Assembly: GCA_040386315.1 (NCBI GenBank) | Contig: JAZKFS010000020.1 | Coordinates: forward strand, 4,620 to 68,619 | Source of the DNA: Bacteroidota bacterium | GTDB taxonomy: Bacteria; Bacteroidota; Ignavibacteria; Kapaibacteriales; DASPKH01 | Direction: 5' to 3' | Length of the DNA: 64,000 nt | Part shown: piece by piece, positions 13,637 to 59,247 of the stretch | Layout: every line of letters starts with the position of its first letter | Position numbering within the stretch: the stretch's first letter is position 1 | Position numbers and translations under genes: made by a program | Notes under the pieces: generated by a model | Database searches by the model: none | Seen by the model: only the letters and a program-made list of their open reading frames with translations | What the model was told of the DNA's origin: nothing

Positions 13637-13681
13637 AATGCTTTCTCCTAATTTTGTAAATAGGACCATTGAATAAAAACT

Positions 13682-14878: not shown

Positions 14879-14879
14879 C

Positions 14880-16823
14880 TTAACGAATTACAACAAGTGT
14901 TTTATTCATTGTCATACCTTCTCCTTGTAGGCGATAGGTATATGTACCGGCTCCTACTGAATTACCGCTGTCGTCTGTTCCATTCCATTCAGTTACATTC
15001 ATTCCCTTATCCATCAGACCTGCTTTTAAAGTTTTCACTTTATTACCAAGCATATCAAATATAGCAAGTTCGTAATTTCCATTTTGTGGAATTGCAACTG
15101 TAATAGAAGTTGTATTAACTACAGGATTTGGATAGTTAGATAATGCTTGTGTATTTGCATTTTCATCCTTATTTACCAATATCGACTGTCCTGACTTTTG
15201 ATTATCATTAAATCGAACTTCATTTATTGTTAAGCTTGCATCTGAAGTTTTTACAGTAATATAGGCAATTGGCTCGTTTGCATTAAATTCGCCAGTTGCA
15301 CTGATTACTACAGTACTTCCATTCCCTTCAATAAGCACCTTGTTTTCACCAAGTTCTACGCCACTAACTTCAAGAATCTCTCCGTTCACGTTGAATTTGG
15401 TTGCAATAGCGCCTTTAGCAAAACCATTTAATTGTACAGGGATACGATATGTATTTCCATCTACATTAACTGGTGTTCCGATTGCTACATCATTTGCAGA
15501 CTTTTCATTAACACCAGCACGTCCGTAAGGGATAATGGTGTCAAGCAACCAAGGAAGTGTTGGTACACGTCCTGACATGTATAGCATAATTAAAGCAGCA
15601 TCATATTCCGTTGCTTCGAAGAAGAATGATGGATTTCCTGCAAGAAATGGCAAAGAATTATCTGGTGCCACATTTGTTAAATCATAATCAGACAGATTAC
15701 GATTTATCACCGAGCGACGGTAACGTGGTACATCAGTTGAGTTATCAGCACTTCTTGTAGAAAAATAATACCGACCGTTATGATTTACATCTCCATGAAA
15801 AGCATTGCGCTCGCGAAGACTATCTAATGGACGATTCATTGCTTGTGCACGTAGGATAACGCGAGCATCATTCACTGTTACAAAACGATTCTGTGGTAAT
15901 CCACGGTGCTTACCAACCTGTGAAAGATCAGCATCGCCATCACCCCAACCACTTACAAGAAGACGTACATTTACACTTAGACGGACAACAGTGTCACTAC
16001 CACCTGAAGGCTGCCATAAATTTGAAAGGCGTGTACTTGTACGAGCTGTATTAATGTTACCATTAAACTCAAGTGCATTAATATAATCTCCATTTTCCCC
16101 TTTAATTCCAACTGACGCGCCTTGAGTTACTACAGTTGAACCGTTTCCACCAATTTGTCCGTATGCAAATTCAATATCACCTTGAAAATTGTTTGTATTT
16201 CCTAATCTTAGGCTATCTGACTCATATAGATAAAGTTGAAAATTAGCAACACTTGATGGAATAAGCTCATTATTAATATTCAAATTTTGCCATTGCACTA
16301 TAAATGCATTTCTGAATGTCCCGCTTCCATCATTTACAGAACGTGTTCCATAAGAAATCTCTGATGGCAAATACTGTGATTCACCAAGTGTTCCCGGACC
16401 TTTACGATAATAGTGATCTCCAAAAAATGGAGCAACAATATTTACCGGTTGTGTATTTGTAAACAGTGACTGAGGATTATCTGCCGGAATATTAGGTGGC
16501 TGTGTTTTCGTAAACAACACAAATCCATTAATATTTATCCAGACATCACTATAAAGCGTACCATTATAAGAAAATTGGAATGGTAGATTAACTCGAACAT
16601 ACCCATCATCTCTATCAGCAGGATCACTTGATCCAATCTGTGGGGGAAGTCTAAAGTCGTCAGCAGGCAGGACTGTCTTGCTAACCAGTGGAGTATAAGG
16701 ACGATTGCCTACTTTGGTAGCAGCCCTAAAATCCGCCGTAACATCTGCCTGTGCCTGTTGTGTAGTTGCGCCAAAGTATAAACCTAGAGCTGCACCTACT
16801 GCCAGAAGGACACGGTATTTCAT
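14880..16823 (-). CDS. T9SS cargo protein with dockerin-like Ca-binding segments and a cohesin-like module
   Basis: Signal peptide ...TTQQAQA. GDGDADLSQ...VNDARVILRAQAM and HGDVNHNGRYYF...EYDAALIMLYMSG. YRIPVQLNGFAKGAIATKFNVNGEILEVSGVELGE. T9SS/FlgD-Ig-like tail YPNPVVNTTSITV...FDMLGNKVKTL...GTYTYRLQGEG. Confidence 0.8.
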   Translation of the reverse strand: MKYRVLLAVGAALGLYFGATTQQAQADVTADFRAATKVGNRPYTPLVSKTVLPADDFRLPPQIGSSDPADRDDGYVRVNLPFQFSYNGTLYSDVWININGFVLFTKTQPPNIPADNPQSLFTNTQPVNIVAPFFGDHYYRKGPGTLGESQYLPSEISYGTRSVNDGSGTFRNAFIVQWQNLNINNELIPSSVANFQLYLYESDSLRLGNTNNFQGDIEFAYGQIGGNGSTVVTQGASVGIKGENGDYINALEFNGNINTARTSTRLSNLWQPSGGSDTVVRLSVNVRLLVSGWGDGDADLSQVGKHRGLPQNRFVTVNDARVILRAQAMNRPLDSLRERNAFHGDVNHNGRYYFSTRSADNSTDVPRYRRSVINRNLSDYDLTNVAPDNSLPFLAGNPSFFFEATEYDAALIMLYMSGRVPTLPWLLDTIIPYGRAGVNEKSANDVAIGTPVNVDGNTYRIPVQLNGFAKGAIATKFNVNGEILEVSGVELGENKVLIEGNGSTVVISATGEFNANEPIAYITVKTSDASLTINEVRFNDNQKSGQSILVNKDENANTQALSNYPNPVVNTTSITVAIPQNGNYELAIFDMLGNKVKTLKAGLMDKGMNVTEWNGTDDSGNSVGAGTYTYRLQGEGMTMNKTLVVIR

Positions 16824-16872
16824 AATTACTCCTTTATTTTTTTTAAATTATTATCGTATTAGTAATCTTGCT

Positions 16873-16898
16873 GAGGGTTCTTTATATAAAGAACCCTC
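16873..16898. promoter_or_regulatory. Perfect 26-bp palindrome between the giant adhesin gene and the next operon gene (RNA hairpin, no U-tract)
   Basis: gagggttctttat|ataaagaaccctc: the reverse complement of the first 13 nt equals the last 13 nt exactly. It lies in the 91-bp spacer 16824-16914. Confidence 0.6.
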
Positions 16899-16914
16899 CT
16901 GCAAAACATTATTC

Positions 16915-19900
16915 TTAGCGAATAATCATCATCTGACGTGTCATATTCACTGAACCACTTGATAGACGCGCTACATACATACCTGACGGTAATGCTATGC
17001 CATTTCCATCTTTTGCATTCCATTCTATTACGTTTGCAGTCCCTGCAGGATAGAATCCGCTAAAGTCAGCTACTTTGCTTCCTAAAGCATCAAATATCTC
17101 AAACGTTACCTTTCCTTCTACAGGAAGAGTAAATTGCATTTTCGTGCTGCCTGAGAATGGATTAGGTATGTTTTGGAAAGATTCGCTATTGAATCCTGCT
17201 ACCGGCTGCTCGTCTTCTACGCCACTTGCAAAGTCATATCTAATAACGAAGTTGCTTATCGCGTCACGGAAGATAGTAACAGTAATTGTACCATCAGCAG
17301 CGCTTGTATCAACATTGATATCTTGAGCACTACGAGATGCACCTGTTCTCATATTGATCGCAAAGATATTACCCTGCGAGCTACCATCTAATAACCACCA
17401 TGAACTTCCTGCCGGGTTGCGTACTGCATCAGTTTTTGCTGGAACATTATTTTTATTCCATTTGATGGTTACAGGATAATTAGGCGAGGTATTTCCAACT
17501 ACATCACCCGCCTGGAAGCGGCCTTTGTAATATGCTTCGCCGATCACCCCAGCTACTGCTCTTGGGAAAATATCCCTTAGGGCACCATTTGACGAAGGTA
17601 TTGTCCAACGAGTGTCATACACATCAATTGGTGGAATTGGAGGTAATTCATATTCACAATAGTTAGAATCGAGTTTACCTACTGCATTTGCAGATTCACC
17701 AGTTGTAGCATTGACTGCTGTACCCCATTCAATAACCTGGAATGCGCCTTTGCTATTTGAAATAGTCATTGGTACAATAAAGTCTGTTGGTTGAGATACA
17801 TTAATTTTATAGCTGATTGTCCTTCTTGCTCCAGCTTTATCTGTTGCTGTAATGTAAAGAGTTGCTTTACCTTGAGCATCAAGAGTATCCTGGAAGTTCG
17901 TAGCTGTAATCGTCAGGGTTACTGAATCCGTTGTCTGAGGTCCCGAAATCACACTTGGGGTAACTGTAAAGCCACTTTCAGTTGTAATTGTAACGGTCTC
18001 ATTTCCATTAGTTCCCTTACGTGTAAGATCAATATCTCTAAGCACGATTGTGCCAGTATATGATTTACCAATCTCAATACATTGGACAGTCGGAATTGCA
18101 GTTAGGATCGGAGGATGATTTACAGCTATTACGCGAATTGTGAATGTGCGTACATCTGTTAACCCGCCTTCATCTTTTACAACTACCGTAAATGTTACGG
18201 TTGTATCGTTAAATGGCAAGTCTGTTACACGTGGTGTTCCAAAAAGAATTCCACTTACAGGATCAATCTTTAACCAGTTTGGCGCTGTTTTTGAATTGCG
18301 CACATCGAATGAACCTGCTTCATCTGCGAAACACTCATCACGAGGGATAAATGTGCTTGTATCGTTAGCATAAAGCAATTTGAATCTCTGATCCTGGCCG
18401 AAGTTTGGATCTGTTACACGGACTCGACGTAGTGAATCAAGAAGTGCTATATTATAATCCTGATCTTCGATTGCATCAGGGAAAGTAGCATTCTCAATAC
18501 GTGGAGCAACGTTTACCATTACACGGCGTGTAAGTGTATTAATTCTTCCATGCCCATCATTAACCACAAATGTTACAGTAGTATCGGTATTTAGAGCACC
18601 TTCAAACTGACGTACCGGGGTTAATAAATTATATGCCTGAGCTGAATCAATTCTAATACTTAGCTGCCCTGCTGATGTAAAGTCTGCACCAAATGGATCC
18701 AGAGCATTAAAATCACCATATTGTCTAAAGTACTGATTAGACATCCAGGTAGGACGTACTAGAGTCACTTCATCTGTTACTGAATCAGTTGGATTACGGC
18801 GAAGTGCAATTGATTGGAATCCATAAGCTGTTTTACCATAACGGAAGTCCCAACCGCGTGCTGCTGCTGCCGCATCTTCAGCTTCATCATCAGTCTGAAG
18901 GTCAATCTGGAAACGTAGTTTATCTGTTAAATTTGCAACAAGCATCTCATCTGTTCCACACTTATAAACATTCTGTGTGAAGATAGGATTAGTATCTGTT
19001 ACAAATACTCTAAACTGATATGTAGCTATTGAATTAGCACCTACATTAATTGTATCTTGTTGTAAGTAGCGTGCATTCGTTACATCATAAGCTTCCGCAT
19101 GGAAATATGGCGGGAAGATATTAATATATCGTGCAATAACACTATCAGCTAATCCTGCGGCACGTAATGAATCCAATGTGTTGATATTTGGCGGGAAATT
19201 ACGAATTCCTACCGTTACCATTTCACCACCCGGAACCACAAATGGATTCGTTGGACGGCCACCAAGAACACGATAGCCACGTGCACCGAATGCTGTTCCC
19301 TGTGAAGCATTGATTGTTGTATCAGTTAGCCAATATGAAAGTCCAGATCCCGGCTCTACACTATATGTATAGGTTAGTTGCGTGAAATCATTTGGAGTCA
19401 ATACTGAACGCGGATCGTAGAAGATATTTGAATCTACTCCGCTGATTGTAAAGATTGAATCACGTCCCGGAGCACGTTCTAGATCATTTACATCACGAGG
19501 ATATGTTCTATCTTCGCTTACAAAGATCATATTACGCAACTCTACCGGCAGAAGATTACGCAGGTTGTTGATGTTACCTGTAAATACTGGAGGAGGTGTT
19601 GAAACTCCTACGTTAAATACTAACGCATCATCATAAGCTGCATTTACACCTTCATTCCAAAGTACCGTACGAGAAACTACCCGAACTAAATCTCCATTTG
19701 CAACCGGTAACGCTCTATAGCGCTCACCAGCCCAGAAATTAATACGATTCACCCTGTTTTGATCAATCTGACTATTGTCATCGTTTGATATTGGAAGGCG
19801 AGGACGATTGCTAAACTGAACTCCAAACTCGTTTGGAGCGCCTAAGACATTCGAACCAGCCTCATACCGGCGTCCGACTAGTGCTGCCGCATCTTCATTT

Positions 19901-22900
19901 GCTCCATTCTGAGCTAATTGAGCTAACAACTCACGTCCACTACCTAAGTTTGCTAATCCTTCAGCCGAACGGCGGAATGTCGTATTACCAGTTCTATTTG
20001 CTGAATCTGGTAGCATTTCAATCCGTCCTCTGAATATCTCGCTAGACGTTGTGACTTGGCGAAGATTCGCACGTACAAAGTCACCCGTTGTTTCGTTGAT
20101 TACGAAGAATACAGTTTCATTAACTGTAGGAGCATTTGGATGATCCTGGTTACTCAACTCTGCTGTTCCGCTATAATTAGCGCGTGTTTCAAGGAATAAA
20201 GGATAACCAATTGGCTGGTCGCCCTTGAATTCACTTTGCAGAGCATTGATATTAGCATCAACTTCAGCTACAAATGGATCACGTCCTAAACGGCGTACAT
20301 AGCGATTAAATGAAGGCGAACCCGCAGTATTTGTAAAACGACGAATTGATTTTGGAATACCTACAGCAAAGTCCTCAATCGGTGACATGCGACGACGTGA
20401 ATAATCAGCTGTCTTAATGTCCGTACCTTTATCAAAAAGATCATATATACGGCCCTGCATTAATAGTTTCTCTGGAATACTATTTGCAGCCGGTGTATTT
20501 TGATTATCAAATGCTATGTTGCCAACAGGAATTGGCGTATAGTTAAAACGTTGAGAGGATTCAAACGGCCCTTGCTCTTTAGGATTTGAACTATTGCGGA
20601 TATAACGCAAATGCGTAGTACCGTCACCAGCTACAAAGAAAGTCTCCTGAAGAGTTCCTGATTCCGGTAGTATTGTCGTTACCGGTGCTTCAGTCTGGCC
20701 CCAGTAATTACCGCGAAGAGTATCAACACCACCACTTCCAATAAGGCCGGTTGACGAAGTTCCTTTTGTATTAGGAGCATCAGGAAGGCGAATCAGAAAG
20801 CGTGCTGTATTATCATACATTGAATTCGCAGCAATGCTTGAAGAAGCATACGGAAGAGGCCCGATAATTTCTCCATAGAGAATTGCTCCCGCAAGATCAC
20901 TTGATGCAGGGTTTTCTCTGAAAGCCGAAGTTGTCCGGATATATGGCCCTGTAATTGCATTCTGCTCACGGCCTGTATCAGATAATGCAGTATTATTAGT
21001 AATAAGTGAGCGCTGGAATACTAATTTTAGATCGTAGTTATCTGAATATACCGCTGCTCCTGTGAATGCAGTATTATTTTGAATACGCACGCGATTAAAG
21101 ATAATAGAATCAGTACGACCGATATTATTTGTTGAAGCTTCATCAAGAATGTAAATAGCACCACCTAAGCCGGTACCGTTTTCAGGTAATCCTACGCCAG
21201 GGTGTGTACGTACTACATCACCTAATTGAGTTGTTCCTGTACCAAGCTGTGCAAGATTTACAACAGCTTCATTATCAATGAATCGTGTAAGCATCCGTGC
21301 ATCAGGCGGCGTAATTGCTGAAGCAGCATTTGTAAATACTTCATTTGACGAAGTAAATGTCGTTGCTTCACCTGATGGCAAGGTTGTTAACTGATCTAAG
21401 TCTGTTAACATATATCGTCTGGAATCATCACCAGGGCTAACCATTGCTACTGCTCCACCATTACTAAAGTTTGCGGTATTCATTACGAATTCCACTCCTT
21501 TTAGAACATTAAGAGTAGCGTTTAGCGTATAGATGGCACCACCACCACGAACCAACGCACGGGATGAAGCTTGAAGAGTTGCATCTGAAGTATCAACAAA
21601 TCTTCCTAGACCTACCACATTGCTGTCCAAGATAGCACGAACTATTTGTACATAGCGGCGCGCTAATGGCAAAGCCGGATCAATATTTAATGTAATAGCA
21701 CCACCGGAATACCCTGCTGTATTACGTGTAAATTCTACACGGAATGGGCGTGAATAACCAATAACCAGGTTACCTGATACACCACCAGCTCCATATACGG
21801 TCATGTTTTTCTGAGCATAGATAGCACCACCATGAAAGGTAGCTACGTTACGATCAAATACAACATTATACCCATAGTTGCGAGTTAAGATAAGTGCATC
21901 AGATCCACCAATGATTGGTGATGGGCGTACTTCGCTCAATGTCGCTGAATTACCAACGAAGATAGCACCGCCTCTTGAAGCTCTGTTGCTTAAGTAGTGT
22001 GATGGATATCTTGAATCAAGCGTCTGACCGCCACGAACCTGTAAACGTCCTGCAGTAGCATCTACATAAATAGCTCCACCCATTGAATAGCTCAATGAAT
22101 TTGTACCTGCAGTAGGATTATCACTGATAAATGGAACAATCGCTTGATTAGCATTGAATCTACCGGCAATTGTTACAGATGTCTGCTCACCTACATATAG
22201 TGCACCACCACGCGCTCCCAATGTACCTGCATTATTCTGAAGATTGTTAGCAATGTTACCGCTAAAGTTAATATAATCATTAGAACCGGTAGAAATACCA
22301 TTAACATCATTATTAACACCTAATGCCACTTCAATAGCACTTCCACCATTAGCAGCACTTGCACCGGCAATAACCATTGCCCCACCAAATGCCTGATTTC
22401 TGGCAGCTGTTCCATTAAAGGTTGCAGCATTATTTACATCGTCAGTTAAGATCGTACCTACACCCGGTACAAATATCTGGCGAACATTTGCATTAATTAC
22501 TCTATTTGCATCAAAGTTTAACTGACGAACACGTCCTAATAACACCGCTAAACGTGCATCATCCACACCTTGACGCTGTACATCTGTAAATGGCTCAGCT
22601 GTTGCCGTAGCAAGATTATCAATTGCAGGAATAGCCTGAACTACGGCTGCACCGGTTGAATTTTCAGTTACAGCACCGTTTGCAGTACCAGGATAATTCG
22701 GAAGCGCTGCTGTTGATACAGTTGGAAATAGTCCAGTTCCAACCGGAGCTTCCAGAAGTTGAAGAGCACCACCGCGATTACGGGCAAAGTTGTTTGTGAA
22801 ATTACAGTTTACAAGCCACGTACGTGACGAGAAACTTGTAAGAGCACCACCACCACCATTAGAACGTGAACGTAAATCATCATTTACTGCTGCACGTGCT

Positions 22901-23847
22901 GCTGTTGTTCCACCAGCTTGGTAATAATCTCTTCTATCTACTGTAGTATCTTTGCGGAAATCTTGAAAATTTACGTCACGGAAAAATGCAGCCCGTGCAC
23001 CCGGAAGAACAACGATATGTCCATACTCACGCGAGAAAGCGTTTACACGGCGACCTTTAAAGGTAATCGTTGATGGAGTAATATTTACACTACTACCATT
23101 TGCACGGAGGAATGATTGAATATTAATGTTTGGGTCAGTATTTGCAAACCGTAAGCGAGCTGCTGTATAAAGCAACGCTGCTTCAGGAGTTGCAAGAAAC
23201 TGCGGAGAATTCGTTGTTGCAGTCGGGTCACTTAAGTTTATTAAGTTACGATTACGCGAATTCGCTGTACCACCGGTTTGACCAGGAGCAAGCGTAGTAT
23301 CCAGGACAACGTTATAAACAAAATTATTTTTGCCTGAATTTGCAGTATTACGATTTCCTGCTACAGTTACCTCATTCGGTGTTGAAATTGTAAACACACC
23401 CGGAGATAAAAAGAAACCAGGATCAGCAAAACCATAAGGGCGCTGGATGCCCGGAGTTACCGGGTCTAGATCAACGTTAATAAAATTAACATTGTTGTAT
23501 GTTACCGACATACGCCCGTCAGCGATAATACGCCCGCCGGTCGAGTCAATCATACGGCCGTTATCGGTAAACTCTACAGTTGTACCCGGCTCAATAATTA
23601 AAGTACCGCCAATAGTATATGTACCATTGACGCGATAGAGAGTATCTCTCAAAAATACTCGGACTTCGCCGGGACTGACACGCCCATTGACTTCCGCAAT
23701 TGGCGGCGCAGCAAACACTTCAGAAGCTGAAAGTGCAAGCACCATCCATAAAGCTAAACGAAACAAACGTTGCATAGAACCTCCGTTTGGTAAAAAAGAA
23801 TTAACCACATTATTACTATTATTTATAATTTTTAAATCTGTTTTCAT
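16915..23847 (-). CDS. Giant (about 2300 aa) T9SS-secreted adhesin: Pmp-like right-handed beta-helix repeats, Ig/cadherin-like (He_PIG-type) domains, T9SS tail
   Basis: About 10 GGA[ILV] repeats, often with an FxxN context (NRGGALQLL, RGGALYVGE, MGGAIYVDA, RGGAIFVGN, HGGAIYAQK, SGGAITLNI, GGGAIYTLN, LGGAIYILD). APNWLKIDPVSGILFGTP...VVVKDEGG. Tail IPNPFSGSTKMQF...FEIFDALGSKV...GMYVARLSSG. The real start may be the second ATG at 23775 (MQRLFRLALWMVLALSASEVFA). Confidence 0.85.
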   Translation of the reverse strand: MKTDLKIINNSNNVVNSFLPNGGSMQRLFRLALWMVLALSASEVFAAPPIAEVNGRVSPGEVRVFLRDTLYRVNGTYTIGGTLIIEPGTTVEFTDNGRMIDSTGGRIIADGRMSVTYNNVNFINVDLDPVTPGIQRPYGFADPGFFLSPGVFTISTPNEVTVAGNRNTANSGKNNFVYNVVLDTTLAPGQTGGTANSRNRNLINLSDPTATTNSPQFLATPEAALLYTAARLRFANTDPNINIQSFLRANGSSVNITPSTITFKGRRVNAFSREYGHIVVLPGARAAFFRDVNFQDFRKDTTVDRRDYYQAGGTTAARAAVNDDLRSRSNGGGGALTSFSSRTWLVNCNFTNNFARNRGGALQLLEAPVGTGLFPTVSTAALPNYPGTANGAVTENSTGAAVVQAIPAIDNLATATAEPFTDVQRQGVDDARLAVLLGRVRQLNFDANRVINANVRQIFVPGVGTILTDDVNNAATFNGTAARNQAFGGAMVIAGASAANGGSAIEVALGVNNDVNGISTGSNDYINFSGNIANNLQNNAGTLGARGGALYVGEQTSVTIAGRFNANQAIVPFISDNPTAGTNSLSYSMGGAIYVDATAGRLQVRGGQTLDSRYPSHYLSNRASRGGAIFVGNSATLSEVRPSPIIGGSDALILTRNYGYNVVFDRNVATFHGGAIYAQKNMTVYGAGGVSGNLVIGYSRPFRVEFTRNTAGYSGGAITLNIDPALPLARRYVQIVRAILDSNVVGLGRFVDTSDATLQASSRALVRGGGAIYTLNATLNVLKGVEFVMNTANFSNGGAVAMVSPGDDSRRYMLTDLDQLTTLPSGEATTFTSSNEVFTNAASAITPPDARMLTRFIDNEAVVNLAQLGTGTTQLGDVVRTHPGVGLPENGTGLGGAIYILDEASTNNIGRTDSIIFNRVRIQNNTAFTGAAVYSDNYDLKLVFQRSLITNNTALSDTGREQNAITGPYIRTTSAFRENPASSDLAGAILYGEIIGPLPYASSSIAANSMYDNTARFLIRLPDAPNTKGTSSTGLIGSGGVDTLRGNYWGQTEAPVTTILPESGTLQETFFVAGDGTTHLRYIRNSSNPKEQGPFESSQRFNYTPIPVGNIAFDNQNTPAANSIPEKLLMQGRIYDLFDKGTDIKTADYSRRRMSPIEDFAVGIPKSIRRFTNTAGSPSFNRYVRRLGRDPFVAEVDANINALQSEFKGDQPIGYPLFLETRANYSGTAELSNQDHPNAPTVNETVFFVINETTGDFVRANLRQVTTSSEIFRGRIEMLPDSANRTGNTTFRRSAEGLANLGSGRELLAQLAQNGANEDAAALVGRRYEAGSNVLGAPNEFGVQFSNRPRLPISNDDNSQIDQNRVNRINFWAGERYRALPVANGDLVRVVSRTVLWNEGVNAAYDDALVFNVGVSTPPPVFTGNINNLRNLLPVELRNMIFVSEDRTYPRDVNDLERAPGRDSIFTISGVDSNIFYDPRSVLTPNDFTQLTYTYSVEPGSGLSYWLTDTTINASQGTAFGARGYRVLGGRPTNPFVVPGGEMVTVGIRNFPPNINTLDSLRAAGLADSVIARYINIFPPYFHAEAYDVTNARYLQQDTINVGANSIATYQFRVFVTDTNPIFTQNVYKCGTDEMLVANLTDKLRFQIDLQTDDEAEDAAAAARGWDFRYGKTAYGFQSIALRRNPTDSVTDEVTLVRPTWMSNQYFRQYGDFNALDPFGADFTSAGQLSIRIDSAQAYNLLTPVRQFEGALNTDTTVTFVVNDGHGRINTLTRRVMVNVAPRIENATFPDAIEDQDYNIALLDSLRRVRVTDPNFGQDQRFKLLYANDTSTFIPRDECFADEAGSFDVRNSKTAPNWLKIDPVSGILFGTPRVTDLPFNDTTVTFTVVVKDEGGLTDVRTFTIRVIAVNHPPILTAIPTVQCIEIGKSYTGTIVLRDIDLTRKGTNGNETVTITTESGFTVTPSVISGPQTTDSVTLTITATNFQDTLDAQGKATLYITATDKAGARRTISYKINVSQPTDFIVPMTISNSKGAFQVIEWGTAVNATTGESANAVGKLDSNYCEYELPPIPPIDVYDTRWTIPSSNGALRDIFPRAVAGVIGEAYYKGRFQAGDVVGNTSPNYPVTIKWNKNNVPAKTDAVRNPAGSSWWLLDGSSQGNIFAINMRTGASRSAQDINVDTSAADGTITVTIFRDAISNFVIRYDFASGVEDEQPVAGFNSESFQNIPNPFSGSTKMQFTLPVEGKVTFEIFDALGSKVADFSGFYPAGTANVIEWNAKDGNGIALPSGMYVARLSSGSVNMTRQMMIIR

Positions 23848-24765: not shown

Positions 24766-25016
24766 TTTTAAAAGACTGCTGCTAATCTTTTAAAAGCAAG
24801 TTGCAAATATAGCAGTCCCAAGCTCAAAAACAAATGAATTTTTTTTTAAAGTTTTTTTAAAAAGCAAATTTTGTGGAAAACTTTTCTACTTTCCCTTTTA
24901 AAAAGTGTCAGGTTTTTTTCATAGTGTCAGGTTTATTACACACTTTTTATTCTGACACTTTACACTTTTTAAAAAATCTTTTAAAAACTTGTTTTAAAAC
25001 TTCACGGTTTTTAAAA
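24766..25016. repeat. Array of 8 TTTTAAAA copies (E1 terminator / tRNA promoter region)
   Basis: Copies start at 24766, 24788, 24855, 24896, 24967, 24979, 24992 and 25009. Confidence 0.85.
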
Positions 25017-28419: not shown

Positions 28420-29868
28420 TTATGCTTGCTCTAAATGCTTTTTCAATGTTTCTGTCACAAGGCGCGGATTGCCCTTGCCCTGCGTGGCTTTTAAAACTGT
28501 TCCGACCATAAACCCGAAAAGATTCGTGCGACCGGCTTTATATTCTGCCACTTTATCCTGATTTTCTTTTAAAAAGTTGATGACCAGCTCATCAATCATT
28601 CCCGTATCGGAAACCTGCGCCAATCCGCGCTTTTCAACGATTTCCTTCGGCGATTCACCTTTTAAAACATCAGGGAAAATTTCCTTCGCGATTTTACTGC
28701 TAATCACATCCGCCGCGAAAAGGTCAACCAATTCCGCCAGCAATCTCGGCTGAACTCCGGTTTCCTGCGCTTCGATTTTTTTATCGCTCATAATGCGCAT
28801 CACGTCCGTCATCACCCAGTTGCTTACGAGTTTAAAACGGTCTTTCGATTTTTCAGCAAGGAATTCGCAGCACTCTTCAAAATACGCCGCGAGAGATTTT
28901 TCCTCAACCAAAACCGCCGCATCATACTCCGGCAAACCATACTGGTTTTTAAAACGGTCACGTTTTGCGCCCGGCAGCTCCGGCAGCTCATGCTTCACGC
29001 GATGAATCCACGCCTCGCTCACATTCACCGGCACTAAATCCGGCTCCGGGAAATATCTGTAATCGTGCGCTTTTTCCTTCGTACGCATTTCACGGGTTTG
29101 CTGCTTGCCCGCGTCCCACTGAAGCGTAATCTGGCGAACTTCACCACCCGATTTCGTCAGCTCGATTTGCCGCTGAATTTCATATTCCAGCGCTTTTTCC
29201 ACGTTGCGAAAACTATTCAAATTCTTCACTTCGGTGCGAGTGTACAGCTTATTATCGCCCTTCGGACGAACCGACACGTTCGCATCACAGCGCAGCGAAC
29301 CTTCTTCCATATTCCCGTCGCAAATCCCAAGATACATCACGGTCTGGCGGATATGCGCGAGATATTTATACGCTTCCTGTGGCGTGCGGATATCCGGCTC
29401 GGACACAATCTCAATCAGCGGCACACCCGAACGGTTCAAGTCCACAAGCGTGTCAATATCAAGGTCGTGAATGGATTTACCCGCGTCTTCCTCCATGTGA
29501 ATCCGCGTAATCCCAATTTTCTTTTTTGCGCCATCGTGCTCGATTTCCACATGACCATCATAGCAAATCGGGTCTTCATACTGCGAAATCTGGTAGCCCT
29601 TCGGCAAATCCGGATAGAAATAATTTTTGCGCGAAAAAGTCGAAACCGGGCGAATATTGCAATTCGTCGCCAAGCCCATTCTTAATGTGTACTCGACAAC
29701 ATTATTATTCAAAACCGGCAAACATCCCGGATGCCCGAGGCACACCGGACACGTATTCGTATTCGGCGAAGCGCCATACACCGTCGAGCAACGGCAAAAC
29801 GCCTTCGTCGCTGTCAGCAACTGAACGTGAACCTCAAGGCCTATGACCGCTTCAAAATCTGCGTGCAT
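28420..29868 (-). CDS. gatB: Asp-tRNA(Asn)/Glu-tRNA(Gln) amidotransferase subunit B
   Basis: EAVIGLEVHVQL, KAFCRCS...NTNTCPVCLGHPGCLPVLN, RIHMEEDAGK, and a C-terminal YqeY-like tail. Confidence 0.95.
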   Translation of the reverse strand: MHADFEAVIGLEVHVQLLTATKAFCRCSTVYGASPNTNTCPVCLGHPGCLPVLNNNVVEYTLRMGLATNCNIRPVSTFSRKNYFYPDLPKGYQISQYEDPICYDGHVEIEHDGAKKKIGITRIHMEEDAGKSIHDLDIDTLVDLNRSGVPLIEIVSEPDIRTPQEAYKYLAHIRQTVMYLGICDGNMEEGSLRCDANVSVRPKGDNKLYTRTEVKNLNSFRNVEKALEYEIQRQIELTKSGGEVRQITLQWDAGKQQTREMRTKEKAHDYRYFPEPDLVPVNVSEAWIHRVKHELPELPGAKRDRFKNQYGLPEYDAAVLVEEKSLAAYFEECCEFLAEKSKDRFKLVSNWVMTDVMRIMSDKKIEAQETGVQPRLLAELVDLFAADVISSKIAKEIFPDVLKGESPKEIVEKRGLAQVSDTGMIDELVINFLKENQDKVAEYKAGRTNLFGFMVGTVLKATQGKGNPRLVTETLKKHLEQA

Positions 29869-30843: not shown

Positions 30844-33800
30844 TTAAAAAGATTGTACAGAAATAGAGGTCGTTTCCTGTGATTTATTCCGATGCTTCAC
30901 AGCATTTTCGCCATCGCCAATCGCTTCATACGCTTCGGCGAGTGTAATGTGAATTTTCCGCTCATCGCTTTTCGCATTACTTTCTGTCACGATTTCCAGG
31001 CTTTCTTTTAAAAGCCCGATCGCTTCGTTAACTTTCCCGGTTTTTAAAAGGATGTTTGCGGTTTCCGTCAGGCACGACGCTTCGCCCATTGTATTTCCGA
31101 TCGCGCGGAAAATGGCGAGCGCTTCGGCCAAGTATTCCAGCGCTTTTTCATTGTCTTCCTGCCGCACGAATGCACCGCCGAGTTTTAAAAGCGTGAGCGC
31201 TTCACCTTTTTTATCGCCGATCTTCCTGCGCAGGTCTAAACTTTTAAAATGATAATCGAGCGCGGTGGCATTATCGCCGAGATGCGCGTAATACGAACCA
31301 ATATTATTCAGCGAACTCGCCTCGCCGAATTTATCGCCAAGCTCACGTTTTATCTCCAGGCTTTGAAACTGATAATTCAGCGCGCGTTCGTGTTCGCCCA
31401 TCGCGCTGTAGAGATTGCCGATATTATTCAGCGCGAAGGACTGCGACTGACGATTGCCATTTTCCTCGTGCATTTTCAGGCTTTGCAGGTAATGTTTTAA
31501 AGCGCGCTGGTGCTCGCCCATGTTTTTAAAAGCATTGCCGATATTATTATGCGAAGCGGCAACGCCAAATTCATCACCGGAGGCCTCAAACATTGCCTGG
31601 CTTTGCTGCGCATATTGGAGCGATTTCGGGTAATTTCCCAGATCATAATACACGGTTGAAAGACGGTTAAAACTGGATGCTTCGCCTTTTACATCGCCGA
31701 TCTTTTTAAAAATCGCGGCAGATTCTTCAAATTTTGCAATTGCCGCCGGTTGCAATCCAACTCGCCAGTAACACGTCGCCGCATGCTGAATACTTGTGGC
31801 AAGCCCGATCGTATAGCCCATTTTCTCGGAAAGGCGATATGTCTCATCGCAGATTTTTAAAGCTTCCTGCGGGTCAATTTTCGACTTGTACATCGCCAGC
31901 GAATTCAGCGCGTCAATGCGTTCGGTTTCCAGCGAAAGCGTTTTGATCTTTTCTTCTAAAGCGCGAATTGTGTCAGGAATGGAATGCGTGATTTCCGCTT
32001 CATTTGCAAGCGGGATCTCAAACAAAAATGCTGCGCCGTGGCCGGGTTCGCTTTCGCACCAGATCTTCGCGTTCATCGCTTCGCTGAGTTTTTTTACGAT
32101 CGAAAGTCCAAGCCCGGTGGATGATTCGCCACCCGTTGGCAAAGCCGAAAGCCGGGCGAATTTTCCGAATAATTTTTGCTTGTCGTCATCATTCAACCCC
32201 GGCCCTTCGTCCTGCACTTTTAAAACCGCCGTTTTTAAAACGCTTTTTTCGATGCTGATAGTGACGGATTTTCCATGCGGCGAATATTTTATGGCGTTGG
32301 AAATAAGATTGTCGAGAACTTCCTGGAGTGCGTGTTTATCAGCTTTTACCGTAAGCGAATGAAGCTGCGTTTTAAAAACAATCGAAATATTTTTAGCATT
32401 TGCGCGCTCGCGATATTCTTCACTGAGCTGCCGCGCGATGGAAACAATATCCAGCACTTCCAGCGAAATATTGATCTTACCCGACTCAATTGCATTCACG
32501 TCCAGCAGGTTTGAAACGATGTCGCGCATCCGCGTTGCCGTTGTTTCGATGGACTTAATTTTATCGAGAATTTTCTCTTTTGAAAACCTGTCGTAGTAGC
32601 GCGAAAGGATTTCCGACGAAAGAATAATCGCAGCAAGCGGATTTTTTAAATCATGCGCCGCGATGCCGAGAAATTCATTTTTTTCGTTATTTAATTCCGT
32701 CAGATATTGATTCGCTTCCAGCAGATTTTTATTTAAAGCTTCGGTTTCTTCCTGCGAATCCACAAGCCGCTCGTTCAGCATTTGCACTTTTTCGAGTGCC
32801 TGCGCAATTTCCACATTTTTTAAACGGTAGATTTCCGCATTTAAAGCTTCTCGTTCAGCTTTTTCCTTATCGCGTTTTAAAATTGAAATCCTGTCTGCCA
32901 GCGCAACGGAAAGCAAGACAACTTCAAGCGCCGAGCCAACCTGAACGCCATATTGCGTGATAAGATTATTCGGCAAAACGCCAACCGTTTTTAAAACAAA
33001 AATGAAAAGCCCGGCGACAAACACAGCCCACGCGCTCACATAAAACCGCGCCGGACGATAGCCGTTTTTCAAACTCAAAATCGCCGCCGCGATCACCATT
33101 CCAACAAACGGAAATGCCATCGCAATTGCAATACGGATGAGAACGGAATATTCTATAAAAAGCGAAAGCGCGATCAGCAGCAGACTTGAGTACATCTGCC
33201 ACGTGATGAATTTATTAAGCTTCGGAGTGTTGACTTTAGTGTTTAAAAATTCCTTCGTAAAAATGAGCGCAAAACACTGAAACGCAAACGCGGAAAACAT
33301 CAGCGCTTTATTCGCCCACCACGGCGACTGCGGCCATAGATATTCAAACGACAGCCCGTTGATCGTCATTTGAAAAAGCGTGAAAAACACGAGGTAGCCG
33401 GTGTAGGAAACGTAGGTGCGGTCGCGCAGGAAGATAAAAACGGAGAGATTGTACAGCACCATGATAAGCATAATGCCGTAATACAGCCCAAGCACGATCT
33501 GCTCTTCGTGGTCTTTCGCGATGAATGCCTGCATGCTCCAGAGCGTGAGCGGGATCTGCACCGAACCGCTTGTTTGCAGGCGCATGTAGTAGGTGTTCGA
33601 CGTGTTTTTTTCGAGAGGAAGGCGGAAAATAATATTGCGGTGCTTCAGCTCGCGCATTGAAAACGGGAATTTATCGCCCGAGGCAACTTTTTTAAAACTT
33701 CCGTCCAGCTGCGCTGTATAAAGCTGTGCTTCATCAAGAACGGGATAGCTCAGTTCCAGCAGCCATTCAGCCGATTCTTCCAGCGAATTAACCACCGTAA

Positions 33801-34071
33801 AGCGCACCCAAAAAGCAGATTTCGTCAGGCCGTAGCCCGGCACATCTTCCTTGCTTTTTAAAAACTTTCCTGAATTTTCGGGCGACGAAACATTTGCAAT
33901 GGTGAGCTTCCCGGCTTTATCCTCCAGAATTTCAAGATGTTTACCAAGCACAACTTTGCCGGCTTTGTCGCTGAGCACAGCCGTTTCCTGCGCCGCGCCT
34001 TTAAAAGGCAGACAGCACAGGAGGAAAACGAATATTTTTAAAAACTGCGGAAGGCGCGGCTGTGCTGTCAT
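30844..34071 (-). CDS. Sensor histidine kinase: 7TMR-DISM extracellular domain, 7 TM, HisKA/HATPase, and a C-terminal TPR array of about 330 aa
   Basis: 1075 aa. Signal peptide and periplasmic domain, seven hydrophobic helices (aa about 190-400), coiled coil, H-box IAAHDLKNPL, N/G boxes NLISNAIKYSP...DEGPGL...GLGLSIVKKL, then about 8 TPR-like repeats (NNIGN.Y...G....AL.Y..QSL). Confidence 0.85.
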   Translation of the reverse strand: MTAQPRLPQFLKIFVFLLCCLPFKGAAQETAVLSDKAGKVVLGKHLEILEDKAGKLTIANVSSPENSGKFLKSKEDVPGYGLTKSAFWVRFTVVNSLEESAEWLLELSYPVLDEAQLYTAQLDGSFKKVASGDKFPFSMRELKHRNIIFRLPLEKNTSNTYYMRLQTSGSVQIPLTLWSMQAFIAKDHEEQIVLGLYYGIMLIMVLYNLSVFIFLRDRTYVSYTGYLVFFTLFQMTINGLSFEYLWPQSPWWANKALMFSAFAFQCFALIFTKEFLNTKVNTPKLNKFITWQMYSSLLLIALSLFIEYSVLIRIAIAMAFPFVGMVIAAAILSLKNGYRPARFYVSAWAVFVAGLFIFVLKTVGVLPNNLITQYGVQVGSALEVVLLSVALADRISILKRDKEKAEREALNAEIYRLKNVEIAQALEKVQMLNERLVDSQEETEALNKNLLEANQYLTELNNEKNEFLGIAAHDLKNPLAAIILSSEILSRYYDRFSKEKILDKIKSIETTATRMRDIVSNLLDVNAIESGKINISLEVLDIVSIARQLSEEYRERANAKNISIVFKTQLHSLTVKADKHALQEVLDNLISNAIKYSPHGKSVTISIEKSVLKTAVLKVQDEGPGLNDDDKQKLFGKFARLSALPTGGESSTGLGLSIVKKLSEAMNAKIWCESEPGHGAAFLFEIPLANEAEITHSIPDTIRALEEKIKTLSLETERIDALNSLAMYKSKIDPQEALKICDETYRLSEKMGYTIGLATSIQHAATCYWRVGLQPAAIAKFEESAAIFKKIGDVKGEASSFNRLSTVYYDLGNYPKSLQYAQQSQAMFEASGDEFGVAASHNNIGNAFKNMGEHQRALKHYLQSLKMHEENGNRQSQSFALNNIGNLYSAMGEHERALNYQFQSLEIKRELGDKFGEASSLNNIGSYYAHLGDNATALDYHFKSLDLRRKIGDKKGEALTLLKLGGAFVRQEDNEKALEYLAEALAIFRAIGNTMGEASCLTETANILLKTGKVNEAIGLLKESLEIVTESNAKSDERKIHITLAEAYEAIGDGENAVKHRNKSQETTSISVQSF

Positions 34072-37327: not shown

Positions 37328-37336
37328 ATAGAAATT

Positions 37337-45382: not shown

Positions 45383-45506
45383 CGTCTTTCCTCTTTTAAA
45401 AAAATGTTTGGTGAAATATGCTGGTGAGCGAAACTTACTAAAGATTTTGGTACTGAAACTGTTAAGATTTAGATAAATATTAAAAGTCTTTTAAAAGCAT
45501 TTTGTA

Positions 45507-45586
45507 ATTCTGAGTAGAGCGAAGAATCAACGCTAGAAGTTCGCGTTAGGATATTCCGCCGTAGATTCTTCGCTCTGCTCAGAATG
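45507..45586. repeat. Inverted-repeat element of the same family as 2681-2825
   Basis: ATTCTGAGTAGAGCGAAGAATC (45507-45528) against GATTCTTCGCTCTGCTCAGAAT (45565-45586): 22-bp arms, 1 mismatch. The inner flank GAATCAACGCTAGAAG is shared with the 2.7-kb element. Confidence 0.7.
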
Positions 45587-45605
45587 AAATTTTCCGTTTT
45601 AAAAA

Positions 45606-46971: not shown

Positions 46972-49689
46972 ATGAAAAAAGTGCTTATTATTCTGGGCGG
47001 GCTGCTCGTTGTTTTTGTTGGCGCGCTCGTGGCGGTTCCTCTCTTTTTTAAAGATGAGATCACGGCGCTCGCCAAGCAGACTATCAACAAAAATCTGAAG
47101 GCGGACGCGGATTTTAAAAGCGTGGATGTGTCGCTGCTGAAGGATTTTCCGCGGCTGCATTTTGCGATGGAAAATTTTTCCGTGGTGAACCGTGCGCCTT
47201 TTAAAGACACGCTGGCGTACATTCCGTCGCTGGGCGTTTCGCTCGATGCGTGGGATTATATCACGTCGCAGAAGGTTTCGATTCTCGCGGTGAATGTCGA
47301 AAAGCCGCGCATCAACGCGCATATTTTAAAAGATTCCACCAAAAACTGGGATATTTTTATTGCCAGCGACAAGCCGGGTTTTGCTTCTACGCAAGTTGAT
47401 AAAATTTTAAAAGATATTTCCGGTGAACTCCAGGAGTTTTCGGTGAATGATGCGACTATTATTTTTACCGATGATGCGGGTAATAAATCTGCGCTTTTAA
47501 AAAACTTTTCAGCCAGCGGAAACGGCGATTTTTCAAAGCAGGTTTTCGTCCTCGAAACAGAAGCGAACGGGCTGACAAGCTTTACTTATGGCGGCATTCC
47601 ATTCCTGCGTGAAGCTGTTACAAAACTCAACGCCGACCTGCAATTTGACATGACGAAAAAGCAAATTCTTTTAAAAGAAAACAACCTGCTTTTAAACGAT
47701 TTGCCTGTTGGATTTTCCGGCACGGTTGACCTTTTGGAAAATGATGCGTACGGCGTGAACATAGATTTTAAAGCAAAGGAAAGTTCTTTTAAAAACTTTT
47801 TGTCGCTCATTCCGGCGTTTTACACGAATAAAGTGAAGGATTTTAAAAGCTTAAAAACTGCCGGAACGATGGCGCTTCAGGGAGCGGTGAAGGGAACATA
47901 TTCCGACAAAACTTTGCCTGGATTTAACGCTACACTTCAGCTCAATAACGGCATGTTTCAATATCCTGATTTGCCGTCGGCAGTGCGAAATGTTGCGGCG
48001 GACGTGCGTATAACCAATCCTGACGGCGTGCCGAATAACGCGGTTGTGGACGTTCGCCGCGGCCATGCGGAAATGGACGGTGACCCGTTTGATGCGAAAC
48101 TGCTTTTAAAAACGCCGATTTCTGACCCGTATATTGACGGTGCTTTTAAAGGAAAAATCAACCTTACGAACGTAAAAAAATTCTTCCCGCTTGAGCCGGG
48201 AACAGACGTGGGCGGAATTGTTGGTGGTGAGATAGTTTTAAAAGGAAACCTTTCGATGCTGGAAAATAAGCAGTACGAACGCTTCACCGCACAAGGCGCG
48301 GGCTATGCGCAAAACCTCGTTGTGAAAAGTCCGCAACTTGCCGAAACGGTGACAATTCAAAACGCAAATCTCGCTTTTTCGCCACAATCTGCGCAACTGA
48401 CAAACCTCGCGATGAAAATTGGCGGAAGTGATTTAAGTGGTTCGGGACGGTTGGATAATTTGCTGGCATATGTGCTTAAAGATGAAGAATTACGTGGCGA
48501 AATGAGCGTAAATTCCAACGTGATGAACCTCAATCCGTGGATGCCGAAGGAAACGAAAGCATCGCAGCAATCGGCGTCAACGCAAAAGCAATTTGACAAA
48601 ACGCTTGTGACGGATTTGCCCGAAAATCTGAATTTTAAAATCAACGCCGTGATGAACCGCGTTCTGTATGATAACCTGATTTTATCGAACGTGAAGGGAA
48701 TTCTGACGCTGGCGAATAAAATTCTGCGCATCGAGCAGAGCCAGATGGATTTGCTTGGCGGGAATATGGCGATGAGCGGCACGTACAATACGCAAACGCC
48801 GGGCAAACCGCAGTCGGCGCTGGATATGACGGTCACGAATTTCAGCTTTGCGGAAACCTACAAAGCATTTGCTACGGCGAAAGCGTTCGTGCCGTTCATG
48901 GAGCTGCTTAAAGGAAGCTTTAATGCGAAAATGCAGTTTGCCACTGACCTTGACGGAACGCTGATGCCGATTTTTCCGTCGGTGACGAGCGTTGGCGGGC
49001 TGGCGATTGACCAGGTGCGCGTGGAAGGTTTTAAGCCGTTTGCAAAGGTTGCCGAGCTTTTAAAAATGCCGGAGCTGGCGAATCCACAGCTTACGAATAT
49101 CAAGCCGAGTTATAGAATTGAAAAAGGGCGGCTGTTCCTTCCGGCGTTCGCTTTTAAAGTTGGCGATAAAGACGTGACGATGAGCGGTTCGAGCGGGCTG
49201 GACAAAACGATTGACTACGTAATGAATATGAAAGTGCCGACGGGAACGCTGGCGTCGCAAGCAAATCAGGCGCTTTCGGGGCTTTTAAAAACAAATATCA
49301 GTGCAATAAAAAGTTCGACGGTGGACGTTGCGATAAAAATCACGGGAACATTCGACAACCCTAAAATATCAACAACGCTCGGCAACGTCGTTCAAGACCA
49401 GATTGATAACACAAAACAAGCGCTCGAAGACGAAGCAAAGCGCCGCCTCGACGAAGAAAAAGCCAAAATTGACCAGCGTTTAAAAGATGAAGAAGCGAAA
49501 CTGCGCGACAAAGTAAACACAGAAGCGGAAAAAGCAAAGCAGCAAATCGAAGCAGAAAAAGAGAGATTGCGCCAAGCCGCTGAAGCCGAGAAAGAACGCC
49601 TCCGCAAAGAAGCTGAAGCGGAAAAAGAGCGTTTGAAAAAGAAAGCGGAAGAGGAATTGAAGAAGAGATTTCCGTTTAAAAAGCCGTAG
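46972..49689 (+). CDS. AsmA-family outer-membrane-biogenesis protein with a K/E-rich coiled-coil tail
   Basis: 905 aa. N-terminal anchor MKKVLIILGGLLVVFVGALVAVPLFF, a long beta-rich body, and the C-terminal tandem EAEKERLR(Q/K)xA x3 encoded at about 49540-49650. Confidence 0.7.
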   Translation: MKKVLIILGGLLVVFVGALVAVPLFFKDEITALAKQTINKNLKADADFKSVDVSLLKDFPRLHFAMENFSVVNRAPFKDTLAYIPSLGVSLDAWDYITSQKVSILAVNVEKPRINAHILKDSTKNWDIFIASDKPGFASTQVDKILKDISGELQEFSVNDATIIFTDDAGNKSALLKNFSASGNGDFSKQVFVLETEANGLTSFTYGGIPFLREAVTKLNADLQFDMTKKQILLKENNLLLNDLPVGFSGTVDLLENDAYGVNIDFKAKESSFKNFLSLIPAFYTNKVKDFKSLKTAGTMALQGAVKGTYSDKTLPGFNATLQLNNGMFQYPDLPSAVRNVAADVRITNPDGVPNNAVVDVRRGHAEMDGDPFDAKLLLKTPISDPYIDGAFKGKINLTNVKKFFPLEPGTDVGGIVGGEIVLKGNLSMLENKQYERFTAQGAGYAQNLVVKSPQLAETVTIQNANLAFSPQSAQLTNLAMKIGGSDLSGSGRLDNLLAYVLKDEELRGEMSVNSNVMNLNPWMPKETKASQQSASTQKQFDKTLVTDLPENLNFKINAVMNRVLYDNLILSNVKGILTLANKILRIEQSQMDLLGGNMAMSGTYNTQTPGKPQSALDMTVTNFSFAETYKAFATAKAFVPFMELLKGSFNAKMQFATDLDGTLMPIFPSVTSVGGLAIDQVRVEGFKPFAKVAELLKMPELANPQLTNIKPSYRIEKGRLFLPAFAFKVGDKDVTMSGSSGLDKTIDYVMNMKVPTGTLASQANQALSGLLKTNISAIKSSTVDVAIKITGTFDNPKISTTLGNVVQDQIDNTKQALEDEAKRRLDEEKAKIDQRLKDEEAKLRDKVNTEAEKAKQQIEAEKERLRQAAEAEKERLRKEAEAEKERLKKKAEEELKKRFPFKKP

Positions 49690-53020: not shown

Positions 53021-53027
53021 GTCGTTT

Positions 53028-53100
53028 TTTTAAAACGAAAAAAGGTTTTAAAAGAATTGCTCTTTTAAAACCTTTTGCTTTTTAGAATCTATTTTTAAAA
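53028..53100. repeat. 4 TTTTAAAA copies in an 82-bp spacer between convergent genes
   Basis: Copies start at 53028, 53046, 53073 and 53093. Confidence 0.85.
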
Positions 53101-53102
53101 AC

Positions 53103-59227: not shown

Positions 59228-59247
59228 CCACCTGACTCTAAACCCAA

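Follow-up and report, generated by a model that had tools for sequence, protein, structure and literature searches.

A hyper-abundant palindromic octamer in one uncultured Bacteroidota clade and its imprint on protein sequences

Introduction

A palindromic octamer, TTTTAAAA, was found in great excess in a 64-kb stretch of DNA with 43% G+C (contig JAZKFS010000020.1, positions 4,620 to 68,619, of the Bacteroidota assembly GCA_040386315.1), which is referred to here as the window. The octamer occurs 215 times in the window, and inside genes it is read in two phases only, both of which place a lysine behind a leucine or a phenylalanine. TTTTAAAA is likely to be a hyper-abundant palindrome of one uncultured Bacteroidota clade that is favoured genome-wide at the level of double-stranded DNA. 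A first-pass annotation of the window, which started from the copies in an AsmA-like gene, had proposed that a DNA-level force is reshaping amino-acid sequences. This proposal was borne out by the enrichment of the peptides that the octamer can encode and by orthologue comparisons of AsmA and gatB. It was confirmed that a DNA-level force, and not protein-level selection, puts TTTTAAAA in genes and alters amino acids.

This kind of phenomenon is already known. Uptake signal sequences and DNA uptake sequences (USS/DUS) are motifs that imprint the proteome, and the highly iterated palindrome HIP1 is a hyper-abundant palindromic octamer. To our knowledge, USS/DUS and HIP1 are the few systems known in which short DNA motifs override protein coding.

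Abundance and distribution of the octamer

The 215 copies of TTTTAAAA compare with 9.3±2.8 in dinucleotide-preserving shuffles of the window. This corresponds to an excess of 23-fold, and to one of 80-fold when the expectation is taken from base composition. TTTTAAAA is by a wide margin the commonest 8-mer of the window, with a density of 3.4 copies per kb in DNA that holds 41 open reading frames (ORFs). It is a perfect 8-nt palindrome composed of A and T only, and it shows a weak symmetric preference for a flanking pyrimidine and purine (Y-TTTTAAAA-R). The reverse arrangement, AAAATTTT, is present in 10 copies and is not enriched. Variants that depart from the octamer by one change are enriched 4-16-fold at the outer and central positions.

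The density of TTTTAAAA is highest outside genes. Intergenic DNA carries 84 copies in 3.9 kb (about 21 per kb, or 17% of intergenic bases) against about 2.2 copies per kb in genes, an intergenic excess of about 10-fold. The intergenic arrays are irregular in layout (examples are listed in Table 1), and no helical or other spacing periodicity was detected in the arrays of the window. In more than 20 genes a copy precedes the start codon by 2-30 nt, and copies are also found at, or directly after, stop codons. Within genes, no bias in position was found, and copies are spread evenly along the reading frames (Kolmogorov-Smirnov p=0.81). The gene for tRNA-Arg(CCG), located at 24677-24751 on the minus strand, is without an internal copy; copies begin 15 nt downstream in plus-strand coordinates (24766).

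Reading phases and codon choice

The 41 ORFs contain 131 copies, with 79 in phase 1, 52 in phase 2 and none in phase 0. The two readable phases of TTTTAAAA are xTT-TTA-AAA, which encodes [FLIV]-L-K, and xxT-TTT-AAA-Axx, which encodes x-F-K-[IMTNKSR]. The third phase is shut inside ORFs because it contains TAA. The first-pass annotation had stressed that no copy lies in the TTT-TAA frame; this holds for all 131 intragenic copies, and it is uninformative because it is given by the definition of an ORF. At the ends of genes the third phase is used, and 4 of the 40 complete genes draw their TAA stop codon from a copy of the octamer (TTT-TAA-AA; Table 1).

The number of intragenic copies is far above what the encoded proteins alone would give. 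When the proteins were kept and synonymous codons were shuffled within genes, 15.8±3.5 copies were obtained, and 5.0±2.2 were obtained when codon order was shuffled. Across the proteins of the window, LK and FK top all dipeptides in over-representation, with observed/expected ratios (O/E) of 1.66 and 1.52. Their codons are strongly skewed. TTA-AAA encodes 123 of the 170 LK dipeptides (72%), while TTA makes up 22% of the Leu codons, and TTT-AAA encodes 89 of the 93 FK dipeptides (96%). A plain codon-pair bias was rejected as the source of this skew, because the bias reaches into the neighbouring bases needed to make up the octamer. A codon ending in TT precedes 64% of the TTA-AAA pairs (background, 11.7%), and 58% of the TTT-AAA pairs have both the preceding T and the following A (background, 9.7%).

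Peptides that can carry TTTTAAAA without amino-acid change, here called compatible peptides, were defined as [FLIV]-L-K and x-F-K-[IMTNKSR], where x is not M, W, K, Q or E. The octamer was shown to encode nearly all of them: 79 of 94 of the first type and 52 of 55 of the second, or 131 of 149 together (88%). These occupied peptides account for all of the intragenic copies, and copies of the octamer include 11% of the window's lysine codons.

Imprint on protein sequences

The compatible peptides are themselves over-represented. Relative to amino-acid composition, their O/E is 3.08 and 3.03 for the two types; 82 control loci, with 342,051 amino acids, give 1.06 and 0.94. Peptides with the reversed residue order, a control that Findlay and Redfield used for uptake sequences (PMC2817400), were counted 27 and 14 times, against 94 and 55 for the compatible peptides (3.5x and 3.9x). 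For USS/DUS, tripeptides have been shown to be enriched 1.8-2.7-fold (PMC2817400), and the imprint of TTTTAAAA surpasses this range. About two thirds of the compatible peptides were shown to have arisen through amino-acid replacement.

The direction of change can be followed in the AsmA-like gene. The 12 copies reported there by the first-pass annotation were recovered with the same coordinates, phases (4 and 8) and peptides (Table 1). The window protein has 16 compatible peptides and a relative with 84% identity (locus L001) has 12, against a mean of 4.7 in 119 homologues of the family and 1-2 in the four motif-free orthologues closest to the window protein (45-48% identity). Comparison with motif-free orthologues had been proposed as a check at the first pass; these orthologues lack most of the residues in question and use other codons. 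Among their LK and FK dipeptides, 5 of 34 use TTA-AAA or TTT-AAA, and none forms TTTTAAAA. Three of the 12 copies lie on an LK or FK that is also present in motif-free orthologues, where it is written with other codons (e.g., CTG-TTG-AAG). At the remaining copies residues were replaced in this lineage, for example F-[SAT] to FK, TFK to LLK, MIR to LLK and QAK to VLK, and these changes mostly extend an F or K that was conserved beforehand.

A similar comparison was made for gatB, of which 80 orthologues from other bacterial lineages average 1.14 compatible peptides (maximum 3), while the window protein has 4. All four sites carry derived residues, including a change of M to V at a Met that is 91% conserved and a change of M to L at a Met that is 99% conserved.

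Occurrence in relatives and conservation of sites

The abundance of TTTTAAAA is clade-specific and lies within one uncultured Bacteroidota clade. The motif-rich loci (L001 and L085-L090) have 1.1 to 4.8 copies per kb over their whole length. One related genome, represented by a 985-kb contig of JGI 3300043546 (L085, L088 and L090), is syntenic with the window, with proteins that are 41-98% identical. Its locus L088 has 4.76 copies per kb (3.3 in coding and 14.7 in non-coding DNA), 40 of 42 compatible peptides occupied and a peptide O/E of 3.9. The abundance was also seen in four more assemblies (L001, L086, L087 and L089), which come from ENA, Logan, NCBI and JGI. An assembly or sequencing artefact is unlikely because five independent assemblies show the copies. 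In the loci whose AsmA is 45-48% identical (L002-L004), 0-0.06 copies per kb were found. None of 80 genomes sampled via gatB (among the matches listed, at most 61% identity) has more than 0.84 copies per kb; these genomes served as the control set, and L002-L084 are all at or below 0.84 copies per kb.

The individual sites are also retained between genomes. The window and the related genome have 39 genic sites in common, out of 45 in the relative, or 61% of the 64 in the window. Control 8-mers under identical peptides are identical in 19% of cases when compared with L085, and in 42% when compared with the closer L001. Of the alignable intergenic sites, 23 of 40 are conserved, against an expected fraction of 0.19 (0.815^8, from 81.5% identity), and the decayed intergenic copies differ chiefly in the length of the T- or A-run.

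Several observations on these relatives were made in passing. The AsmA relative at L001 (P0001, HYF03307.1) was deposited as 'Patescibacteria group bacterium' and shares a 90%-identity protein cluster with AsmA from the Bacteroidota-like JGI genome described above; the 'Patescibacteria' label of L001 is probably a binning error. Otherwise syntenic DNA differs in gene content between window positions 38690-39846 and L090 positions 4202-6035. A Crp-like gene and one for a 159-aa protein, both with 0 copies, are present there in the window and not found in the relative. The relative alone has an AAA_15/SMC_N gene (5 copies) and a 176-aa gene (1 copy), a pair that sits in L090 between the genes for methylmalonyl-CoA mutase and a PAS kinase. 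A viral scan for motif triplets returned mostly A/T-rich giant-virus contigs. TTTTAAAA is the top 8-mer of two viral contigs, L093 (IMGVR_UViG_3300035670_000695; 10 copies in 14 kb, 43% G+C) and L101 (IMGVR_UViG_2718217985_000001; 21 copies in 11 kb, 31% G+C). In these contigs the octamer encodes between half and two thirds of the compatible peptides, and both may be phages of motif-bearing hosts.

Differences among genes

The density of TTTTAAAA varies from gene to gene. The first-pass annotation had linked this variation to conservation, with poorly conserved or envelope proteins as the richest and conserved enzymes as the poorest. The counts behind this claim were accurate: the 7TM-DISM/TPR histidine kinase gene has 14 copies, the ilvE-like gene has 0, the RF3 gene has 2, and the 4 copies of gatB all lie past the catalytic domain (aa 305-461). 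The E1 gene has one in-frame copy six codons before its end, and a second copy overlaps its stop codon. For the GT4 glycosyltransferase the count of 10 was correct and the list of peptides was not, since IFKEIL is not a TTTTAAAA site and SFKK and AFKK had been missed. The FkbM gene has 6 copies and a gene for a 398-aa protein has 8.

The claimed trend was not recovered. Across 20 orthologue pairs, protein identity and density are uncorrelated (Spearman rho=+0.16, p=0.50), and within AsmA the motif columns have a conservation of 0.576, against 0.537±0.053 for random positions. The two strongly conserved Met residues that were changed in gatB and the absence of copies from three large secreted proteins also contradict it. 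Conservation as a determinant of density was rejected on the orthologue-pair and AsmA-column tests. Lysine content was shown to predict density (rho 0.63, p=9e-6; 0.37 without motif-encoded lysines), because both open phases require AAA-Lys.

The three secreted proteins (1029, 647 and 2310 aa) are encoded by a co-directional cluster, here called the cold genes, and carry type IX secretion system sorting tails and Ig-like domains. Over about 12 kb, the cold genes and their spacers hold no copy at all, and the 398-aa gene is embedded in the same stretch. The regions at 2-1660 and 35615-37144 of the window also have zero copies. The zero-copy giant secreted or Ig-like genes are Lys-poor (1.6-3.0%) and have a G+C content at third codon positions (GC3) of 0.22-0.28. 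Low GC3 was rejected as a determinant of density: the correlation is weak (rho 0.16), and the 398-aa gene matches the zero-copy genes in GC3 yet has 8 copies.

In the related genome, the orthologues of the cold genes are 74%, 71% and 78% identical, stand in the same order and also have zero copies; the zero-copy regions of its locus L085 lie at 1072-9996 and 11193-14366. Recent horizontal transfer of the cold genes was rejected because the syntenic cluster of the relative is equally empty. Avoidance of TTTTAAAA in the cold genes was rejected as well, since their values are at chance level (compatible peptides O/E 0.95, with 0 of 3 used).

Table 1. Positions of genes, octamer copies and arrays in the window. 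Copies are those of TTTTAAAA; percentages refer to homologues.
Feature	Position	Strand	Remarks
AsmA-like gene	46972..49689	+	905 aa; Pfam AsmA; 12 copies; 12/16 compatible peptides occupied
DFKS	47112..47119	+	xxT-TTT-AAA-Axx; Phe in 98%; Lys not in the four nearest motif-free orthologues (S, A or T there)
ILK	47324..47331	+	xTT-TTA-AAA; nearest motif-free orthologues VYK or VYP; Lys conserved (76%), Leu derived relative to them
ILK	47405..47412	+	xTT-TTA-AAA; variable gapped region; wholly lineage-specific
LLK	47495..47502	+	xTT-TTA-AAA; motif-free orthologues MIR or MLR, so Arg to Lys
LLK	47669..47676	+	xTT-TTA-AAA; orthologues TFK or TLK; Lys conserved (77%); Thr to Leu, Phe to Leu
SFKN	47787..47794	+	xxT-TTT-AAA-Axx; FK ancestral (F 100%, K 89%), therefore codon choice alone sufficed
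DFKS	47841..47848	+	xxT-TTT-AAA-Axx; Phe conserved (95%), Lys in 16%
LLK	48104..48111	+	xTT-TTA-AAA; orthologues VVK, IVR or ITK; relative L001 6/8 bases
VLK	48236..48243	+	xTT-TTA-AAA; orthologues QAK or QAR; relative L001 VVK (7/8 bases)
NFKI	48633..48640	+	xxT-TTT-AAA-Axx; orthologues F-T or F-S; Lys in 1%
LLK	49058..49065	+	xTT-TTA-AAA; LLK ancestral in near orthologues, there CTG-TTG-AAG
LLK	49283..49290	+	xTT-TTA-AAA; LLKT ancestral in near orthologues, LLK there CTC-CTG-AAA, CTT-CTG-AAA or CTG-CTG-AAG
GT4 glycosyltransferase gene	2853..4052	-	10 copies; 10/10 compatible peptides occupied
7TM-DISM/TPR histidine kinase gene	30844..34071	-	14 copies; 14/14 compatible peptides occupied; stop codon within a further copy
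gatB	28420..29868	-	4 copies, at aa 305, 401, 432 and 458
Cold stretch	10580..23847	-	Three secreted giant-protein genes and spacers; 0 copies
398-aa gene	13682-14878		Embedded in cold stretch; 8 copies
Copy supplying a stop codon	5118-5125
Copy supplying a stop codon (E1 gene)	24992..24999	-	TTT-TAA-AA
Copy supplying a stop codon (histidine kinase gene)	30842-30849
Copy supplying a stop codon	38609-38616
Intergenic array	24675-24993
Intergenic array	27199-27296
Intergenic array	29869-30167
Intergenic array	37145-37336
Intergenic array	53021-53102
Intergenic array	59121-59247

Comparison with known motifs

USS/DUS number 1,471 to 1,892 copies per genome, and the listed uptake sequences are asymmetric 9-10-mers (PMC2817400). 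In Neisseria, 34.5% of the DUS copies lie within ORFs, with zero copies in the stop-containing frame (PMC2817400). TTTTAAAA resembles them as a short, genome-wide, lineage-specific motif that imprints the proteome and whose frame use is set by codons and stops (PMC2817400). As in USS/DUS, the copy number is far over chance and the encodable peptides are enriched. An asymmetric core of 9-12 nt, present in both orientations, and the preference for poorly conserved positions are not found. USS/DUS are asymmetric 9-12-mers at less than 1 copy per kb, while TTTTAAAA is a palindromic 8-mer at 3.4 copies per kb, with its coding opportunities saturated. USS/DUS favour poorly conserved genes and residues and are not in genes without homologues, whereas TTTTAAAA shows no conservation bias. 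USS/DUS are also linked to demonstrated competence.

HIP1 (GCGATCGC) is a perfect 8-bp palindrome of cyanobacteria that is over-represented tens- to hundreds-fold, with more than one copy per gene (PMC5861425). It is found in coding and non-coding DNA, is lineage-specific, and its sites are conserved in related genomes beyond control motifs (PMC5861425). Whether HIP1 is maintained by selection or by biased repair is under debate (PMC5861425). TTTTAAAA too is a perfect octameric palindrome, with 215 copies for 41 ORFs, its over-representation falls in the 15- to 300-fold range, and its sites are kept between related genomes beyond control 8-mers. The two motifs differ in several respects. HIP1 is G/C-rich, whereas TTTTAAAA is A/T-only and without a known methylation core, and it occurs in Bacteroidota metagenome-assembled genomes rather than in cyanobacteria. 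HIP1 is enriched in all three frames, whereas TTTTAAAA uses the two open frames and enters the third (TAA) at 4 stop codons only. The intergenic excess is 10-fold for TTTTAAAA and modest for HIP1 (O/E 37 vs 25). TTTTAAAA is therefore HIP-like and is not HIP1, as sequence and phylum differ. Its form recalls HIP1 and its effect on proteins recalls USS, and membership in either family is unproven.

Chi and KOPS are likewise 8-nt species-specific motifs that are over-represented genome-wide and tolerated in coding sequence. They are asymmetric, oriented with replication and present about once per several kb, whereas TTTTAAAA has no orientation and is more than 10-fold denser.

A literature search on over-representation of TTTTAAAA found nothing relevant. 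The literature searched holds no description of TTTTAAAA, of such a motif in Bacteroidota, of near-saturation in coding DNA, of strict lysine dependence or of an exempt gene class. The octamer provides an independent case in another phylum with an unusually clean read-out: only two frames, each dependent on lysine; almost saturated occupancy; sister lineages that lack the motif and act as controls; and, in the same operon, genes that are exempt. With this read-out, sequence alone allows one to measure how strong a DNA-level pressure is, in which direction it acts and how it depends on region. Abundance of TTTTAAAA can also serve as a practical marker of clade membership, and caution is called for in reading LK/FK-rich peptides in these proteomes, which are not functional motifs.

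Mechanism and alternative explanations

What could favour one octamer throughout a genome? The pressure on genes acts at two levels. Existing compatible peptides are recoded to TTTTAAAA, nearly all of them, with 88% occupancy. Near-cognate sites are in addition converted by mostly conservative replacements (M, V, I, F, Y or T to L; R, T, S, A or V to K); such conversions usually start from an F or K already present and have tripled the compatible peptides. The agent may be a dimeric protein that recognises TTTTAAAA in double-stranded DNA. Such a protein would be the simplest agent because of the perfect palindrome, the symmetric Y/R flank, the translation-independent enrichment and the retention of orthologous sites. 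From what has been discussed for HIP1 in cyanobacteria, candidates include a nucleoid protein and an orphan methyltransferase or repair system; continued selection or biased repair would keep the sites in place. More tentatively, TTTTAAAA may be an undescribed A/T-only highly iterated palindrome that defines the clade and is kept by a dedicated recognising system, for which an uptake receptor, a nucleoid protein or an orphan methylase acting with repair could be considered; the exempt class of giant genes would point to a region- or recombination-dependent mechanism. If true, the pressure would be strong enough to recode 88% of the available sites and to overwrite gatB residues that are 91-99% conserved, and it would provide a second, independent system for the 30-year-old HIP1 question.

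Several points weigh against genome-wide favouring of TTTTAAAA at the DNA level. All figures come from the 64-kb window and about 80 kb of relatives, not from whole genomes. The per-lysine rate elsewhere predicts 10.8 copies in the cold genes, where 0 were found (P=9e-6); when two further empty genes are included, 17.3 copies are expected and 0 were found (P 9e-9). A uniform genome-wide pressure would not predict 3-5 exempt genes in two genomes. Neither the 64 kb nor the related loci yielded a candidate gene for the recognising protein. No DNA methyltransferase was found in the sampled DNA, in which the two proteins with a methyltransferase domain (encoded at 1750-2565 and 60878-61762) match general S-adenosylmethionine-dependent and FkbM families. 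A regulatory primary function could also lie behind the 10-fold excess in intergenic DNA and the many copies placed 2-30 nt before start codons. In addition, at 88% occupancy, shared sites cannot tell site-specific selection from a drive that saturates both lineages independently.

An unlikely but concrete alternative is that TTTTAAAA is a DNA uptake signal, with uptake by competent cells and recombination driving copies into tolerant gene positions. A peptide imprint of about 3-fold is what USS/DUS would lead one to expect, the intergenic excess resembles that of Neisseria DUS, the trait is clade-specific, and recombination-dependent drive could spare rarely recombining genes. The cold genes, however, have orthologues in the relative and are hence not recent arrivals. 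An A/T-only perfect 8-bp palindrome at several-fold the density of USS/DUS, with compatible peptides occupied close to saturation, also argues against an uptake signal, as does the failure to find the USS hallmark of a bias to poorly conserved genes and residues (20 orthologue pairs, AsmA and gatB). No competence gene was found among the Pfam hits of the 64 kb and the roughly 80 kb of relatives, and we know of no sequence-specific DNA uptake in Bacteroidota. A regulatory or translation-related role of an intergenic A/T element (UP-like element, terminator or unstructured leader), with intragenic copies as a by-product of codon-pair or mutational bias, is rather improbable. It would account for the share of intergenic bases taken up by copies and for the copies placed just upstream of more than 20 starts and at or after stops. 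Codon-pair bias fails to account for the T and A required on the flanks to make up the octamer, for the 3-fold enrichment of compatible peptides or for the changes at conserved positions. The even spread of copies along genes and the lack of helical or other periodicity in the arrays do not favour such a role, and an RNA-level signal has no need of a palindrome.

Neutral context-dependent mutation, for example by a polymerase or repair pathway that is biased at T/A runs and yields TTTTAAAA without selection or a recognition protein, is highly improbable, even though coding and non-coding DNA are alike affected, decayed copies vary mostly in T/A-run length and one-off variants are enriched. Such a bias should also hit the cold genes, yet their compatible peptides are at chance level and none of the three synonymous opportunities is used. 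It would not by itself explain site retention well over the synonymous background or the lack of enrichment of AAAATTTT. To selection on proteins for Leu-Lys and Phe-Lys, for instance in amphipathic segments, with the DNA motif as a secondary effect, almost no probability can be given. LK and FK are mildly over-represented across the AsmA family (mean O/E 1.30 and 1.42 in 119 homologues), as this explanation would have it. It was refuted by the motif-free orthologues, which are without most of the residues, by the peptide O/E against controls, by the reversed peptides, which are not enriched, and by codon use; moreover, TTTTAAAA is densest in DNA that is not translated.

Additional observations

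Two hairpin-forming inverted repeats were found in the window, at 2681-2710 / 2796-2825 (30 nt, 100%) and at 45489-45532 / 45560-45603 (44 nt, 77%). The second repeat (45489-45603) has TTTTAAAA on its flanks. Both end in ...GAATCAACG, and they possibly form a small family resembling repetitive extragenic palindromic (REP) elements or miniature inverted-repeat transposable elements (MITEs).

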